A DNA stretch of 64,000 nt from Nitrospirales bacterium. GTDB lineage: Bacteria > Nitrospirota > Nitrospiria > Nitrospirales > UBA8639. Position numbers: made by a program. Within the stretch, counting starts at the first letter, position 1, and each line of letters opens with the position of its first letter. The DNA is taken from contig OY729426.1 in assembly GCA_963422365.1 (NCBI GenBank), forward strand, positions 736,001 to 800,000, read 5' to 3'. Below are positions 20,701 to 26,700 of this stretch, piece after piece.

Positions 20701-23700
20701 AGGATAGAATACATCGCTGTCATGAATGCGTTTGACCATCTCTTCACCAAAATTACTGGGTATGACAAGGCGTATCAGTGGCAAGTGGAACTTGCGAGTC
20801 CAACCGACTGCGGGAATCGCCTGATTTGCATTCCGACCGGCTTTGGCAAGACCCTGGGCGTTCTCGCAACCTGGGTGTGGCATCGCGTACACAACCCCAG
20901 TGACACTTGGCCGCGCCGTCTGGTCTGGTGTCTGCCCATGCGGGTGCTGGTCGAGCAGACGGAAAGCGAAGTCCGCGCGGCGCTCGACCGTCTGGGGCTG
21001 CTATGGGATGGGAAAAGCCCTCACGACGGCAAGGTTGGCGTTCACCTGCTGATGGGCGGTGCCGACGCCGGCCAATGGCACCTCTATCCGGAATGCGACG
21101 CCGTGCTGATCGGGACGCAGGACATGCTGCTTTCACGAGCCATGAACCGGGGCTATGCGAGCCCCCGGGCGCGCTGGCCCATGGAGTTCGGGCTGCTGAA
21201 CCAGGATGCCCTGTGGGTGATGGACGAGGTGCAGTTGATGGATGTGGGCCTTGCCACCTCAGGACAACTTCAGGTGTTTCGGGGCGATGACCAAGCCGCC
21301 AAGAAGTCGTTGCGGCCCTGCTTCACTTGGTGGATGAGCGCAACGTTGCAGCGCACTTGGCTGGAAAAGAGCCCGGACACGGCCGACTTGACCGCTGAGC
21401 TCGCCCGGAAGACGCACGGCATTGGCTCCAAGGATCGGGTGGGCCGCCTATGGAATGACGTGATCAAGCCTTGGGAAGCCGTTCCGTTCACCAATCCGCA
21501 GGAGCTCGCTGAGGATCTGTCCCAACGTCACCGTGATCTTGGTTGCGGAAAGAAGGGGCCGACGCTGGTTGTGCTCAATACGGTGGAGCGGGCCGTTGCA
21601 GTCTGGACGGCGCTTCGGCGGGACAGGACGCTGCGGGACGCGGATACGGACATTCGCTTGACGCACAGCCGCTTCCGCCCCGTCGAACGCCAAGCTTGGC
21701 GCGCAGAATTCCTGAACCGCGAGGCTTGCAGCCCGGGAACGAATCGCATCATCGTTTCCACCCAGGTCGTCGAGGCGGGCGTGGACATCTCGGCATCACT
21801 GCTGGTCACCGAGCTGGCACCCTGGCCAAGTTTGGTGCAGCGGTTCGGCCGGTGCGCACGGTGGGGTGGAATGGGTCGGGTCGTCGTTGCGGACTTCGGG
21901 CACGACAGCGACAAGAAAGCCGCTCCCTACTCAGAGGATGAGCTCGATGCCGCGTGTGAAGCCTGCAAGGATCTGCCGTACGTTGGGCCCATCCATCTCG
22001 AATGCTTCGAGGATGCGCATGAAGCGTTGCTGCCGCGCCTCTATCCCTATGAACCCAGGCACTTGTTGCTGCGCCACGAATTGGACGAACTGTTCGACAC
22101 TTCTCCAGATTTGTCCGGGGCGGACATCGATATCAGCCGTTTCATACGCTCTGGCGACGAACGCGACGTGCAGGTCTTTTGGGCCGATGTCGAAGACAAG
22201 TCGCATCCAGCATCGAACCTGAAGCCGAAGCGCGACGAGCTTTGCAGCGTACCCTTCCTCAAGGCTCGCGAATGGCTATGCGCATCACCGAAGTCGGAGA
22301 AGCTGAAACCCGACGCTCACGCATGGGTCTGGGACTGGCTTGACCGCAAGTGGCGCCGTGCCGGACGCCGTGACCTCCATCCGGGCCAGACGGTGCTGGT
22401 TGACAGCGGAGTGGGGGGCTACGACCGTGCTCGAGGCTGGGACCCGAATTCCAAGGCTCCGGTCGAGCCAGTGAGCCTCGTGGACGAGGAGCCCACTGGT
22501 CACCGCCCTTGCTGGAAACGCGACGGCGACGGCTGGCTTCCGAGCGAGCGTCGCATTCGCAAGCTTCCGCCCGAGGACCTCGCCGATGACGCTGAAGAAG
22601 ATGAATCGCTGAGTGTGTCCGGTTGGCAGACCATCGCCAGCCACGGCCTGCAGGTGGGCGAGGAGGTCGAATGCATTGCCAAGGGGGTTGCGCCATCGGA
22701 AGCTCGGCTGCTGCACTTGGCCGGACGCTGGCACGATCTCGGCAAGGCGCATCCGGCTTTTCAAGGCTCCATTCAGGCCCACGACCGCCCTGAACGAGAC
22801 GACATCGCCAAAGCGCCGGACCGCGCTTGGCCGTGCAGCCCGAACAACATGTACCGCATCGATGTTACGGACCAACGGCGCGGATTTCGCCACGAACTGG
22901 CGAGCGCACTCGGCCTGTTCGGCGTTCTGCAACGACATGATTCGCAGCATCCGGCGCTGCTCGGCCCGTGGCGCGAGTGGTTCGACGCCATGGGAGATGC
23001 CCATACGACGGAAGATTCCACTTGCGGCGCGGTCACTGCCAAGCCCACGGCCATCGAACAGGAGATACTCGATCTCGCCGCCGCCGAGTTCGACTTGCTC
23101 GCCTATCTGGTTTGCGCCCACCACGGCAAGGTGCGGATGGCTTGGCACGCAAGCCCCGCCGACCAGAAGGCGGATGATCGCCGGCTGCGCATACGAGGCG
23201 TTCGGGAGGACGACATATTGCCGCCGCTGCCATTGGCCGACGCCGCCGGCAAGTTCCAGGAACTGCCCGCGACGGCGCTGGACCTGTCTCCTTCCGAAGC
23301 GGGTTTGAGCGTTCGAACCGGCAGGAGCTGGACCGAGCGCGTGCTGAATCTCGTCGAGCGCTTCGGACCGTTCACGTTGGCCTGGCTGGAAGCTCTGCTG
23401 CGCGCCGCCGATCAGCGCGCCTCGATGAAAGTGATTACGGATACGCTGTTACAGGAACAGGAGAACAACGATGCCGGACAATCATTGGGTAAAAGCCATC
23501 GAACACTGGCGCCTCCTGCCGGAGGAGGAGCGTCAACGACGCCACCAGGAGTCGATCCCCCGTCACGTCGCCAACTCCATGGCGATGGAGGGCGAGCCGG
23601 TGGACGAAGCGTGGATTCGGGAACGACTCGCCCTCCGCATTCGGCCACCCGCTACGTCGAAACCGCCCTCGGCATCCTGAGCTATCAGGAACTCGCCCCG

Positions 23701-26700
23701 CTGCTCGCGGAGCGAGTAGCCGATGCCGAATTCGCCATTTCGGGCCGGAAATTTGCGCATCAGCCCATTCACGACCTTCTGCTTGATCTTCACCGGCACA
23801 TCTGCGCCGACTTGATACCGGACATGGCGGGGCGTTGGCGACTTCGAGACGTTCGCGTCGGCGAACATCAAGCGCCGTCGCATTGGCAGGTTCCCATACT
23901 GATGCGCAACTATGCCGCCGACCTCGATGTGCGACTAGCGAACCTGGACGAGGATCCCGGCGAACGGCTCATCGATGACCTCGCCTTTGCCGAAGGCCGT
24001 CTCCTGCACATCCACCCGTTCGAGGATTTCAACGGGCGGGTTTCCCGCCTGTTCCTCGTCGAACTGCTCTACCGGTTGAATCTGCCGGTGATCGATCCCG
24101 CCGCGTCGTCGGAGGAGGAGACCAAGCGCTACTTTTCTGCCTTGCAGGCGTATGACCGATGCGACCCGCGCCCTCTTACTGCAATCTGGTGCCTCCGTTT
24201 CACACAGGGAAGCTCCTGATGATCCACGTCCATACACTCGACGGCTGCGCACCCGCGCCGCTGGCGCATTACCTCAAGGCGCTCGGCATCCTGCGGTTAG
24301 TCGCCGAGCAGGCCGACAGCGATGTGCGCGGGTGGTGGGCGGGAGATCGTTTTCGGCTGGCGACGAAGCTGGGCAGGGAGGAGCTGGAGGGGTTCTTTTT
24401 GAAGGACTACCAGCCCACGCCGCTCGTGTCTCCGTGGAACAAGGGTGCAGGTTTCTTCTTCGAGAACGACCCGGGAGTATCTCCCCTGGAGAAATCGACA
24501 AGCCCTCGATTCGCAGCCTTCCGTTCGGGCATCAAGGCAAGCCGATCACAACTTGAAAAACTGTCAGAGGTGGACCAGAAGGTCCGCGACATCAAAGCGG
24601 AAACCAAAATTAGGGGAATGAGCAAAGCGGAAAGAACCCGGATGCGGAGCTCTGAGGAATACAAGCAACGACTTCGAGAAGCAGAGAAGAGGTTCAAGCA
24701 GATCAAGGCGGATCTGATCCCCAGTTTCCGCTTGAATTGGCGGGGAACTCATCGAGAGTGGATGGATTCCGCGATGGTGTTGGGAGACGACGGAACTCCG
24801 AAATATCCTGCGCTGCTTGGCACCGGGGGCAACGACGGTCGACTCGATTTTACCAACAACTTCATGAAACGGCTTGGAGAAGTGTTCGATCTCGGCAGCG
24901 ATGACGGTGCGCCGCGGTCTGCAGCAACGTCTTGGGTGTCCGGGGCCCTTGGGGGCTCGCCGGTTCCGGGCAATCTGGCAGGACAACCTGTCGGTCAGTA
25001 CCTGCCAGGTACGGCCGGGGGCGCGAACAATGGGAATGGCCCCGATTCAGACAGTATGGTGAATCCGGTGGATTTCATCCTGATGCTCGAAGGCGCCATC
25101 GTATTTGCGTCGCACGTCTCCCGACGTTTCGGCTCGTTGGAATCCTCCCGCGCCGCTTCGCCGTTCGCGGTCAACGCCTGCGGAGCAGCATACGCGAGCG
25201 CGTCGACGGATGATGAGAGCGCGAGGGGCGAACAATGGATGCCGCTATGGTCGCGGCCGTCAACTTACGGGGAACTGCGCCGTCTTCTGGCCGAGGGCCG
25301 CGCTCAGATCGGCACTCGAAGCGCAAGAGAACCGCTGGATCTTGCTCGAGCGGTCAAACGTCTGGGCACCGCACGCGGTATTCGAAAATTCCAACGTTAC
25401 GGCTACATTGAGCGCAACGGGCAATCCAATCTGGCGGTTCCCCTGGGTCGTTTCGACGTGGCGGAACGTCAATCCGAACATCTAGTCTGCATGGAAGATC
25501 TCCATCTCTGGTTGCGGCGTCTGCGTCAAGAGGCGCGCGGCCAGAACGCACCAGCTCGCTTATTCATTGCGGAAAAAAGTCTTGCGGATGCGCTCTTTGC
25601 TGTCACTGAACACTCCGGCACCCCGGAATGCTGGCAACGCATTCTTGCGCAGTTGGCGGAAATCGAAGGAATCATGGCCCACGGCAGCGGCTTCAACGCC
25701 CAGACCATTCCGCGTCTGTGCCCGGAATGGGTGTCCGCGAGCGATGACGGAACGCCGGAATTCCGCTTGGCTCTCGCCTTTGCATTGCAGGCGCAAGATT
25801 TCCACCGGTTATGGAAGACGCCAATCGATCCGATTCGGCGTCACTGGCTTCCCCTTGACCGAAAGCAGCCATCGCGCTTTGCCACGACCGGCACAGGCGC
25901 CACAACAAGGCTCGATTTGCAGCCGGAAGTGGTCATGCACGGCCGCCGGGGGCTTGACGACGCCATCGCCCTGGTCGAGCGGCGTCTGGTGGAGGCTTCC
26001 CAGCGCGCAGGCCGCCATCTGCCGCTTAAGGCAGCGCCGTGTGCGGCCGCTGGCATAGCCGACCTTGCGGCGTTGCTCTATGGCCATGTGGATCTGGATC
26101 GCACCCTGGCTCTGGCGCGCGCCCTCATGGCGCTGGATCGCAAGGCATGGGTTGAGCGCCACATACCCATCGAGTTCCCTCGCGCTTCGGATTGGTCGGA
26201 CGATGCCTGGCTGGCGATCCGTCTGTGTACGCTGCCTTGGCCGCTCAAGACGCGCTCCGGGTTCAAGCTCGACATCGGAACCAACCGGGCCATCGTCCGC
26301 CGTCTTGCCGTCGGCGACGCTGCCTCCGCCGTCACCATTGCGTTACGCCGTCTGGGTGCGGCCGGCGTCCGCTGCACCGTCCGTGCCGGTGCAGCGTCTC
26401 CCGAGACTTCTCGGTTGTGGGCCGCAGCCCTGGCTTTCCCCATCACCCAAGGAACCGCTAGGCGGTTTCTCTATTGCTTAGATCCGAATAAGGAGTAATA
26501 ACTATGACTATTGACTTGAAGCCACTGGAAAACGCCAATCGTTTGCTGTTCAGGATTCCCTTGGAGCCGTTGCAGGGAGGCCGATTTCAACCCACCGGAT
26601 TCCCCTCCCTGGGTGCTGCAGAGTTTCAGACTGTCAACGGCAAAAGCCTTTTGGTGGAGTCAGCGCAGAGCATGGCCAACCGCTTGGAGATGACCGTTTG

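Follow-up and report, generated by a model that had tools for sequence, protein, structure and literature searches.

The window, by which we mean the whole stretch of DNA analyzed here (64,000 nucleotides of a contig from a Nitrospirales bacterium), contains a full type I-G CRISPR-Cas locus with a 26-repeat array. The first gene of this locus, cas3g-fic (P0001), is a single open reading frame of 1165 aa on the forward strand (20722..24219) with no internal stops. It is followed on the same strand by cas8g (csx17; 24159..26498; TIGR04113, 587 bits), cas7g (csb1; 26504..27535; TIGR02570 and PF09617) and the cas5-cas6 fusion csb2 (27522..29234; TIGR02165, 169 bits). As previously noted, four unrelated genes of mixed orientation interrupt the locus between csb2 and cas4g/cas1g (29628..32912). 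They encode an FAD amine oxidoreductase (29628..31238), a DUF2269 protein (31222..31659) and a DUF2141 protein (31698..32231), all on the reverse strand, and a PadR protein on the forward strand (32361..32912). Beyond this insert, the forward strand carries the cas4g/cas1g fusion (32946..34658; NF049935, 778 bits), cas2 (34664..34957; TIGR01573 and PF09827) and the CRISPR array (35169..37006), whose 26 repeats are identical (26 exact matches vs 0 expected by chance). No small antitoxin-like gene was seen in the window.

The Cas3g core of the protein occupies residues 1-901 (20722..23424, forward strand) and comprises an SF2 helicase, a Cas3 C-domain and an HD nuclease. The NCBIfam model for Cas3g, TIGR02621, matches residues 4-901 with 741.6 bits (cut-off, 400). 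Pfam matches within the core are DEAD (32-211), Helicase_C (277-382), Cas3-like_C_2 (278-380, 9.2e-23) and Cas3_HD (662-817), and a Fic match follows at residues 1018-1116 (1.5e-9; 39 bits, cut-off 24). With one open frame, matches to both families and the expected motifs in place, these results confirm the earlier claim that a Cas3g carries a C-terminal Fic domain. The helicase motifs GFGKT and DEVQ begin at residues 40 and 168 and the HD motif HDLGK at 671; D168, E169, H671 and D672 are kept in 107/107 fused homologues and K43 in 106/107. Judged by its sequence, the Cas3g part is an intact, working helicase-nuclease. The 3′ third of the gene is a recombination mosaic when compared with L005.

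The Fic domain (residues 975-1165; 23644..24216, forward strand) consists of an N-terminal beta-hairpin, a flap hairpin and the helical Fic core, and its fold is predicted confidently (pLDDT 89.5). Its catalytic loop, HPFEDFNGRVSR (residues 1098-1109; 24013..24048, forward strand), opens with the motif His at residue 1098, and the catalytic residues H1098, D1102, N1104, R1106 and R1109 are all present. All 79 sequences of alignment A2 share the loop residues H, P, F, D, F, N, G, R and R, and the domain reads as complete and catalytically intact. A Phe in place of the Gly found at motif position 6 of canonical Fic enzymes had been pointed out previously; this residue, F1103, is Phe in 79/79 sequences, and more distant relatives (P0309, P0340, P0386 and P0265) have Y or L. 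Of 32 matches to solved Fic sequences, the five seen in alignment (3cuc and four of FICD) have Gly. Since the Phe is invariant, the reaction is possibly something other than AMPylation. The N-terminal hairpin also contains conserved Thr and Tyr residues (T976, T981 and Y988). An inhibitory (S/T)xxxE(G/N) helix, formerly looked for only by eye, is absent in cis: the motif is conserved nowhere across 107 full-length fused proteins.

Between these two parts, the Fic module is prolonged by a Gly/Arg/Pro-rich extension (residues ~904-974; 23431..23643, forward strand) that is predicted to be disordered. AF2 with alignment A3 gave a pLDDT below 50 over model residues 1-71, which represent the extension, and did not dock this conserved segment onto the core. 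The preliminary description called it a disordered linker; the disorder agrees with the prediction, but the segment is not featureless, as it contains two conserved short motifs. Motif A (L922 ... [LVM]929-A930; 23485..23511, forward strand) has L, V or M at 929 in 78/78 rows, A930 in 72/78 and an acidic residue at 923 in 48/77. Motif B (H953-G954-x-[RG]956-x-x-[AT]959-G960, here HGDGGRAG; 23578..23601, forward strand) has H953 in 65/78 rows, G954 in 76/78, R or G at 956 and A or T at 959 in 78/78, and G960 in 62/78. Of 87 module sequences aligned, drawn from all contexts, 78 have the extension, and motif B recurs where the carrier is Cas8g, Csb2, a methyltransferase or a Type IIG enzyme. Nine short forms of ~200 aa lack the extension and are attached to no carrier.

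Earlier counts of clusters, domain make-up and motif frequencies for the family were reproduced. The Fic part is matched by 184 clusters of 640-2039 aa, and Cas3-like_C_2 and Fic occur together in all 120 listed long homologues except P0053. The generic motif is present in 116/120 of these homologues and HPFxDFNGRxxR in 115/120, while 82/120 have precisely HPFEDFNGRV[ST]R. Catalytic substitutions affect two of the 120, P0092, where Tyr replaces the His, and P0065, where His replaces the first Arg, and loci L008 and L009 contain broken remnants. The dN/dS of the Fic part (0.08-0.27; 11 pairs with dS >=0.15) equals that of the Cas3 core (0.16-0.23), and over 106 homologues the Fic part and the core have mean identities to cas3g-fic of 0.707 and 0.708, respectively. 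Purifying selection thus acts on the Fic part as it does on the Cas3 core, and the data support conservation of the fusion across phyla. Fic matches occur in 3/60 relatives, as had been reported, and are strong in those three (G026, G037 and G040). A Fic-bearing Cas3g is found in two of ten Cas3g-positive relatives and in two of 46 Cas3g-positive genomes of the class sample, the other eight and 44 being without Fic. Fic is therefore optional and dispensable for type I-G, and the Fic-bearing Cas3g is a minority form.

The Fic part falls into a clade of its own, marked by HPFxDFNGRxxR, and matches the PADLOC candidate PDC-S04. In 44 of 82 clade loci Fic is located at the Cas3g C-terminus, in 16 it is a separate gene inside a I-G locus, and in 22 there is no I-G gene in the DNA examined. 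It also occurs at the N-terminus of Cas3g (P0243) and Cas8g (P0251), at the C-terminus of Csb2 (P0252, P0265) and in a triple fusion, Cas3g-Fic-Cas8g (P0118, L045). All nine long ORFs sampled (7 of the 18 frames measuring 1150-1326 aa, 2 of the 4 measuring 674-935 aa) combine Type IIG restriction-modification (R-M) domains with Fic, and eight contain an Eco57I methylase. In Type I R-M operons, Fic lies between hsdS and hsdR (L076) or between hsdM and hsdS (L041). Stand-alone members occur outside fusions, and a Pfam scan of 23 unfused-Fic loci showed eight whose neighbors include no I-G or R-M gene, some having other defence-type genes. The tree of Fic sequences shows switching between fused and unfused states inside an I-G-associated clade (61 rows, SH-aLRT 88); the Cas3g C-terminal label needs 11 changes, of which starred branches force at least three. 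The HPFxDFNGRxxR clade is thus a module that can be carried among DNA-targeting defence machines, a finding that is new here, and, contrary to the initial reading, it is not specific to Cas3. Because the same clade is also found on Cas8g, Csb2 and Type IIG enzymes and inside Type I R-M operons, any mechanism has to hold without Cas3 and without CRISPR.

From the fusion, fold, conservation, selection and recurrent association with defence systems, we infer that cas3g-fic encodes a working Cas3g joined to a FicT-like, protein-modifying second effector whose clade is portable across defence systems (probability about 0.5). The real fusion and intact catalytic sequence stand from the preliminary description, as does its statement that the fusion is undescribed: no description of a Cas3-Fic fusion was found in a full-text literature search. 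Its Cas3-specificity does not stand, nor does recruitment of Cas3 by target-bound Cascade, since passages of PMC9638904 describe type I-G Cas3 as a stable Cascade subunit held via Cas8g. Because Cas3 is such a subunit, the Fic domain would ride permanently on the I-G surveillance complex. It is most likely a class-I-FicT-like nucleotidyl (AMP) transferase; a protein substrate is argued because the FICD-like flap and core match in the profile search (2e-22). By analogy with the closest folds, candidate targets would be a translation factor or the ATPase of a GyrB/ParE-type topoisomerase, in either the host or the phage. Fic activity would follow the state of the DNA-targeting complex, so that DNA degradation would be joined by a block of replication or growth. 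The reports on SoFic given below, on AMPylation by a stand-alone Fic defence protein, speak for this reading. A long, flexible attachment whose terminus changes from one subunit to another is a poor match for precise allosteric coupling to R-loop formation. Several further observations weigh against the second-effector reading: Phe at motif position 6 is invariant, no inhibitory motif is conserved, no antitoxin-like gene was seen in the window, AF2 left the extension undocked, Fic is dispensable for I-G, 22 of 82 loci and some unfused loci have no I-G gene or neither I-G nor R-M gene, respectively, and a few copies are substituted or broken (P0092, P0065, L008 and L009).

Fusion to Type IIG enzymes and, at either terminus, to three I-G subunits, together with insertion among hsd genes (L041, L076), also agrees with a guard or back-up toxin that is silent on an intact complex, be it Cascade-Cas3g, Type IIG or Type I R-M. 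An anti-CRISPR or anti-restriction protein that disables the complex would unleash Fic and cause abortive infection, in analogy to the PrrC anticodon nuclease, whose gene lies within the Type I R-M operon of EcoprrI and which is held by EcoprrI. A rule that any attachment suffices fits the scattered fusions better than allosteric activation by an R-loop, the fold is that of class I toxins, which require a partner for silence, and a cis inhibitory helix is absent. However, a masking interface is only putative, AF2 left the extension disordered, the nine ~200-aa forms lack both extension and carrier, and eight of the 23 scanned unfused-Fic loci have no I-G or R-M gene. We consider this guard role unlikely. 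Less probable is a different chemistry, in which the Gly-to-Phe change re-tunes the active site toward transfer of another group, or toward a non-protein substrate near the DNA-bound complex. Doc and AnkX have a non-Gly residue at position 6 and handle groups such as phosphate, phosphocholine or another NMP. The invariant Phe, the Y or L of the distant relatives and the Gly of the solved structures favor this idea, but the remaining AMPylase residues and the FICD-like flap are retained and AMPylases are the nearest folds, making it decidedly unlikely.

Tethering to the machine itself and the conserved hairpin residues T976, T981 and Y988 could instead indicate self-regulation, with Fic modifying or de-modifying its own complex (Cas3g, Cas8g or a restriction enzyme) to restrain or license the nuclease, and with no outside target. 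It is also favored by Fic enzymes such as FICD and SoFic, which an abstract and PDB entry titles describe as catalyzing both AMPylation and its reversal. Against it, de-AMPylation by FICD requires the inhibitory Glu, which is absent here, Cas3g, Csb2 and Type IIG enzymes, dissimilar as they are, would all need to share an acceptor site, and stand-alone Fic forms occur; we regard self-regulation as very doubtful. Lastly, a toxin-like Fic could hitch-hike on defence genes as a selfish addiction module, stabilizing the locus with no role in immunity. Its patchiness (2/46 Cas3g-positive genomes), movement across phyla, decay (L008, L009, P0092 and P0065) and the mosaic 3′ third relative to L005 are consistent with this. 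It is nonetheless most improbable: no antitoxin partner was found in the window or in the fused proteins, and repeated independent fusions, in frame with an essential subunit and under Cas3-like purifying selection, are unlike a mere passenger.

A Fic add-on that recurs on I-G parts and restriction enzymes points to an undescribed second arm of DNA-cutting defences, and comparison with known systems places it as follows. By NCBIfam equivalog models, the locus shares the gene set cas3g, cas8g, cas7g, csb2, cas4g/cas1g and cas2 with the type I-G system of Thioalkalivibrio sulfidiphilus (Shangguan et al. 2022, PMC9638904), but Cas3g here is ~260 residues longer owing to the extension and Fic domain. 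In that paper Fic is not mentioned, the sole word starting with "fic" being "Ficoll". Passages of Zhang and Ye (2013, PMC3936711) report ten Fic/DOC genes inside cas loci, all cas3-containing where a genome was available, among them Geobacter sulfurreducens with a TIGR02612 antitoxin. These genes are separate and average 256 aa, with the canonical HPFxxGNG in two and a "slightly different motif" in eight; those passages do not describe a Cas3 fusion. The class I FicT toxins (VbhT/VbhA, EcFicT/EcFicA, Fic-1/AntF) are 17-19% identical and have Gly at position 6 and a trans antitoxin, whereas the present Fic has Phe and no antitoxin gene, is joined covalently to parts of the immune machinery and is preceded by a conserved extension. 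PrrC resembles the L041 and L076 arrangement as a latent toxin gene among hsd genes, but its fold and chemistry are unrelated and the analogy is one of logic only. The human BiP AMPylase/de-AMPylase FICD/HYPE is the best sequence match among solved structures (profile E 2e-22), with core and flap aligning at 24-28% identity. The alignment begins only at FICD residue 255, past its inhibitory helix; FICD has a TPR domain, absent here, and reads HPFIDGNGR with Gly at position 6. SoFic, a single-gene anti-phage system, is likewise a Fic-domain defence protein, and the PADLOC SoFic model matches the present domain (4.8e-10). However, the match is confined to the core (profile positions 117-245 of 361), the flanking domains specific to SoFic are missing, and in the profile search SoFic (3.4e-4) ranks far behind FICD. 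Abortive infection through AMPylation (PMC12249575) and AMPylation of EF-Tu (preprint 10.64898/2026.07.09.737422) are reported for SoFic. Titles and abstract openings for 9 of the 11 papers naming PDC-S04 give no mechanism for it. Its model, PDLC04839, covers positions 15-196 of 205 (E 9.9e-20). PDC-S04 is defined as a stand-alone protein, with Cas or R-M fusions outside its definition, and the free ~200-aa members of the clade are this candidate.

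Our analysis has shown that an intact Cas3g and a Fic-fold domain, itself intact in sequence and under selection, are joined in one protein, and that the Fic clade to which this domain belongs has been attached recurrently, in independent arrangements, to DNA-targeting immune proteins. The fusion claimed in the preliminary description was borne out, as a single open frame of 1165 codons at 20722-24219 (+) encodes both sets of domains. Pfam places DEAD at residues 32-211, Cas3-like_C_2 at 278-380, Helicase_C at 277-382, Cas3_HD at 662-817 and Fic at 1018-1116, the last with 39 bits against a gathering score of 24 for Fic/Fido (PF02661). 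Residues 4-901 match positions 2-853 of the 854-position NCBIfam Cas3g model TIGR02621 at 741.6 bits, where the cut-off is 400. Helicase motifs I and II (GFGKT at 40, DEVQ at 168) and the HD nuclease residues (HDLGK at 671) are present, in columns that are kept in 106-107 of 107 fused homologues, and the C-terminal domain has a Fic fold with a flap hairpin.

The surrounding locus is that of a type I-G CRISPR-Cas system. The genes 3′ of cas3g-fic are, in order, cas8g, cas7g, csb2, a four-gene insert, cas4g/cas1g and cas2, each cas gene scoring above its NCBIfam cut-off, and they are followed by an array of 26 identical repeats at 35169-37006. The interruption between csb2 and cas4g/cas1g by four unrelated genes, mentioned in the preliminary description, was confirmed. 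It consists of a minus-strand gene at 29628-31238 for a 536-aa FAD amine oxidoreductase (with FAD-oxidoreductase Pfam hits), then DUF2269 and DUF2141 genes on the same strand and a PadR gene on the plus strand. Plus-strand ORFs of 82, 276 and 228 aa that follow csb2 (29545-31346) were considered as antitoxin candidates and rejected, as they lie opposite the 536-aa gene and have no Pfam or NCBIfam hit; they are probably spurious, with the minus-strand gene being the coding one. The GC fraction of the CRISPR-Cas island (20001-36000) is 0.57-0.63, compared to about 0.50 in both flanks, which is consistent with horizontal acquisition.

The fused family is large. The Fic part of the window's protein (query residues 950-1165) is matched by 184 protein clusters of 640-2039 aa, beside 340 clusters of short proteins. 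Among the 120 listed of the 184 long clusters, the Cas3 C-domain and Fic occur together in all except P0053, and the source names are only "Fic family protein" or "Cas3". Of the motif counts reported previously for these 120, that of 82 for HPFEDFNGRV[ST]R also stood, and H.F.[DE].N[GA][RK]..R was present in 116. HPFxDFNGRxxR was present in 115, the five exceptions being HPL (two proteins), DYNGR (one), a His to Tyr change (P0092) and a change of the first Arg to His (P0065). Scanning one genome per species with a pattern gave at least 600 matches, at least 444 of them relatives; the best 80 of these, together with the loci of the first scan, made up 82 loci. They were classed from tblastn searches with the Cas proteins of the window and from the ORF in which the match lies. 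Fic was fused to the C-terminus of Cas3g in 44 of the 82 loci and was a separate gene within an I-G locus in 16, including one broken copy (L008) and one 37-residue remnant (L009). The other 22 had no I-G gene in the DNA covered, some of these loci being short. Carriers belong to Pseudomonadota, Acidobacteriota, Nitrospirota, Rhodothermota, Cyanobacteriota, Verrucomicrobiota, Planctomycetota, Bacteroidota and Armatimonadota, and include the cultured Thiocapsa marina 5811 and T. roseopersicina DSM 217 (L029, L043). The same in-frame fusion in 44 of 82 loci from many phyla excludes an artefact or frameshift. A phage origin was also considered and rejected; among 33 IMG/VR pattern matches, one encodes a weak relative.

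The Fic domain is not confined to the C-terminus of Cas3g. A profile of 79 Fic domains of the clade, searched against 1.84 billion representatives, matched 9969 proteins at E<=1e-3, 959 at E<=1e-10 and 104 at E<=1e-30. An NCBIfam scan of 23 proteins, namely 22 of these matches and P0118, placed Fic at the C-terminus of Cas3g (P0241, P0245, P0253, P0254), at the N-terminus of Cas3g (P0243) or Cas8g (P0251), at the C-terminus of Csb2 (P0252, P0265) and on DNA methyltransferases (P0270, P0281, P0284). In P0118, and also in a 1825-aa ORF of L045, Fic lies between Cas3g and Cas8g in one chain. As a separate gene, it was found upstream of cas3g (L019, L026, L035, L038, L048, L057, L059, L078), divergent beside other cas genes (L020, L023) and, outside CRISPR loci, inside Type I restriction-modification (R-M) operons, in the hsdM/hsdS interval of L041 and the hsdS/hsdR interval of L076. 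Neither I-G nor R-M genes were detected among the scanned neighbours in eight of 23 loci with an unfused Fic gene; these eight are mostly from Verrucomicrobiota, and some have other defence-type genes. A WYL/WCX-domain regulator gene was observed directly upstream of the separate Fic gene in two loci (L026, 8739-9710; L044, 5321-6292). In L021, a 181-aa HTH_37 protein (9198-9740) is encoded directly upstream of a 245-aa Fic gene whose product nests among Cas3g-fused forms in the Fic tree, and it could represent an antitoxin-like or regulatory partner.

We were also able to compare how often the module accompanies Cas3g and other enzymes. In a draw of 401 genomes from the window's class, Cas3g scored above cut-off in 46, and the Fic clade was found at E<=1e-30 in 37 (one of which, G291, is flagged unpublished). 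Only two of the 37 matches are fused to Cas3g, in the window's genome and in G026 of the same genus; a further 18 are in open frames of 1150-1326 aa, four in frames of 674-935 aa and 13 in frames below 400 aa. Seven of the 18 large frames and two of the four intermediate ones were fetched, nine of 22 in all, and each of the nine encodes Type IIG R-M domains with a C-terminal Fic. An Eco57I/MmeI-type methylase was present in eight of the nine, a TaqI_C specificity domain likewise in eight, and an N-terminal HSDR_N nuclease domain in six of the seven large frames; one ORF begins 29 bases from a contig end and may be cut. All nine (L086 and L088-L095, from G037, G170, G115, G128, G109, G282, G283, G183 and G396) belong to the clade and carry the extension discussed below. 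No earlier account of this Type IIG arrangement was found, in literature searches that were not aimed at it. Within the window's class, the module is commoner on Type IIG enzymes than on Cas3g. Among 61 close relatives, Cas3g was found in ten, with the fusion in the same two genomes; the other eight have cas3g frames of 861-1059 aa with no strong clade match nearby. Since only two of these ten relatives carry the fusion, the Fic module is optional for I-G. Beside cas3g-fic in G026 (C1:1034399-1035117), the Cas3g N-terminus is matched over 56 residues and the start of the Fic module over 77 residues that include a TGA; both matches look like remnants of an earlier copy or of a rearrangement. 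The window's genome has two other Fic-like genes outside the window (C1:304653-305033 and 320070-320282, in frames of 278 and 413 aa), which fall outside this clade, with E-values of 1.2e-6 and 1.6e-4 to its profile.

The stretch before the Fic core, previously described as a linker, belongs to the Fic module, judging from its conservation. This extension of about 70 residues (904-974; window 23431-23643) is predicted to be disordered, carries two conserved short linear motifs and precedes the core in 78 of 87 aligned module sequences, being absent from nine short forms of about 200 aa. It was seen in every context, whether fused to Cas3g, encoded as a separate gene, in a locus lacking I-G genes or fused to a Type IIG enzyme (nine loci). 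Motif A comprises L922, a position 929 that is L, V or M in 78/78, A930 (72/78) and an often acidic position 923 (48 of 77 rows). Motif B comprises H953 (65/78), G954 (76/78), R or G at 956 (78/78), A or T at 959 (78/78) and G960 (62/78), and was also seen in proteins fused to Cas8g, Csb2 and methyltransferases. The extension motifs are common to Cas-fused, R-M-fused and many stand-alone forms. Docking of the extension on the core as a tethered inhibitor was unsupported by an AF2 prediction from 87 sequences, in which it has pLDDT below 50 and lies undocked, although this is not evidence of absence.

The evolution of the Fic part was analyzed on a tree of 104 domains built by maximum likelihood (quick IQ-TREE search, with SH-aLRT as the only support measure; L008, L009, L045 and L073 omitted from the profile alignment). 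An I-G-associated group of 61 rows (support 88) interleaves C- and N-terminal Cas3g fusions, the Cas8g fusion and separate genes. A second, mostly Verrucomicrobial group of 22 rows is mostly stand-alone, and the methyltransferase- and Csb2-fused lineages lie near the unresolved base. Fusion to the Cas3g C-terminus requires 11 changes on this tree, with at least three changes forced by well-supported branches. The Fic part is under purifying selection comparable to that on the Cas3 core, as dN/dS was 0.08-0.27 for Fic versus 0.16-0.23 for the core in 11 pairs with dS of at least 0.15. Values were 0.11-0.68 in four pairs of lower dS, and a noisy 0.5-1.4 for the 65-codon linker. Likewise, mean identity to the window's protein across 106 homologues was almost equal for Fic (0.707) and the core (0.708), and lower for the linker (0.525). 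The closest relative, L005, shows a mosaic: window 22620-24364 and L005 9052-10796 share 93% nucleotide identity across the 3′ third of cas3g (HD/C-terminal part, extension and Fic) and the start of cas8g, compared to 76-78% in the 5′ two thirds of cas3g and 82% across cas8g-csb2. The dS to L005 is 0.065 for the Fic part and 0.675 for the core. This pattern suggests a recent recombination tract.

AMPylating Fic proteins canonically carry HxFx(D/E)GNGRxxR, with Gly at position 6. The AMPylase-motif residues H1098, D1102, N1104, R1106 and R1109 are present and are invariant in the 79 sequences of the clade alignment; the loop residues H, P, F, D, F, N, G, R and R are likewise unchanged in 79/79. 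Position 6 is Phe in all 79, Tyr or Leu in more distant relatives, and Gly in the five solved Fic sequences, out of 32 matched, for which alignments were shown. In the profile search, FICD was the best match among solved proteins (2e-22), ahead of VbhT (2.6e-7) and SoFic (3.4e-4). FICD aligns to the window's domain only past its inhibitory helix, and NmFic alignments end at residue 168. A regular-expression search of 107 aligned full-length fused proteins found no conserved cis inhibitory (S/T)xxxE(G/N), on which ground Fic classes II and III were rejected. Near-misses occur at TRYVET 976-981 (a beta-strand in the predicted model), LAFAEG 1087-1092 and SSEEET 1129-1134. No antitoxin ORF was found in the window or, by Pfam, among 132 neighbouring ORFs, a set that covers small ORFs unsystematically. 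As neither a cis brake nor an antitoxin gene was seen, the architecture appears class-I-like, i.e. a bare toxin-type Fic core. Assignment to mobile mystery protein B (TIGR02613) failed at 26.5 bits against a cut-off of 124.4, with relatives at 25-49 bits. The PADLOC SoFic model (PDLC03963) matches in its core only (positions 117-245 of 361, E 4.8e-10), leaving the flanking domains unmatched. The PADLOC candidate PDC-S04 matches over its full length (PDLC04839, E 9.9e-20, positions 15-196 of 205), in a model without a curated cut-off; in the titles and abstract openings of defence censuses, PDC-S04 is only a name.

Based on a FICD-like flap and core, and on AMPylating toxins as the closest folds, we infer that the Fic domain is a nucleotidyl transferase acting on protein. 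Fic-1, one of these folds, is reported to hit DNA gyrase (PMC13327609). The type I-G structure paper (PMC9638904) describes Cas3 as stably bound to Cascade through Cas8g without a target, and the Fic domain is therefore a constant passenger of Cascade. We favor the reading that Fic is a second effector whose action would be tied to the state of the DNA-targeting complex, with a probability of roughly one half. A more specific version, which we put forward tentatively, is that I-G Cascade with Cas3g-Fic is a two-armed effector, which would give a type I CRISPR system, for the first time, an integral protein-modifying arm of the abortive-infection type, and that Type IIG and Type I restriction enzymes have the same arm. 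The trigger would be engagement of foreign DNA by the complex, or attack on the complex by an anti-defence protein. The tethered FicT-like enzyme would then nucleotidylate a host or phage protein, either one associated with DNA or one of translation, and replication would stop; the portable module with its two linear motifs would arm the restriction enzymes likewise.

The main rival is a guard-type toxin released once the complex is disabled. It is favored by the Fic copies embedded in R-M loci and by the indifference of the module to its attachment site, and we regard it as possible, though less likely than the second effector. Against it, and against all toxin readings, stand the lack of a detected brake in the cis-motif scan of 107 proteins and in the antitoxin search of the window and neighbouring ORFs, the rarity of the module among I-G loci, and the stand-alone copies whose neighbourhoods, in some cases, contain no detected defence gene. 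The invariant Phe at position 6 raises the prospect of altered chemistry, which is unlikely in our estimation; self-regulation of the complex by its Fic domain is slightly more doubtful still. A selfish addiction module seems improbable.

Full-text searching brought up no paper in which a Fic domain is connected with Cas3 or with type I-G (I-U); the text or supplements of CRISPR classification or neighbourhood-census papers could list such a fusion. The type I-G structure paper (PMC9638904) makes no mention of Fic, and a guilt-by-embedding preprint contains no word beginning with "Fic" or "Cas3". The nearest report is that of Zhang and Ye 2013 (PMC3936711), which lists ten Fic/DOC genes that stand by themselves in cas3-containing cas loci; eight have a "slightly different motif" and, in contrast to the protein described here, none is a fusion.

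Taken together, Cas3g-Fic is a real, conserved and apparently undescribed variant of type I-G CRISPR-Cas. It belongs to a wider pattern, the attachment of one Fic clade to DNA-targeting defences. Since the family is large, spans many phyla and has cultured Thiocapsa members, its function is directly testable. The invariant Phe of the catalytic loop and the two tether motifs are new handles on Fic chemistry and regulation. If the domain is active, it would show that a defence directed at DNA can also act along a second line, at the post-translational level, and the two-armed reading, if true, would make this a general, undescribed way to link immunity at the DNA level with post-translational toxicity. 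The prevailing view of type I CRISPR systems is that they only shred DNA, and accessory toxic effectors are a hallmark of type III, not type I; here, a sequence-intact, putative protein-modifying enzyme domain is permanently built into a type I-G surveillance complex, and also into single-chain restriction enzymes.
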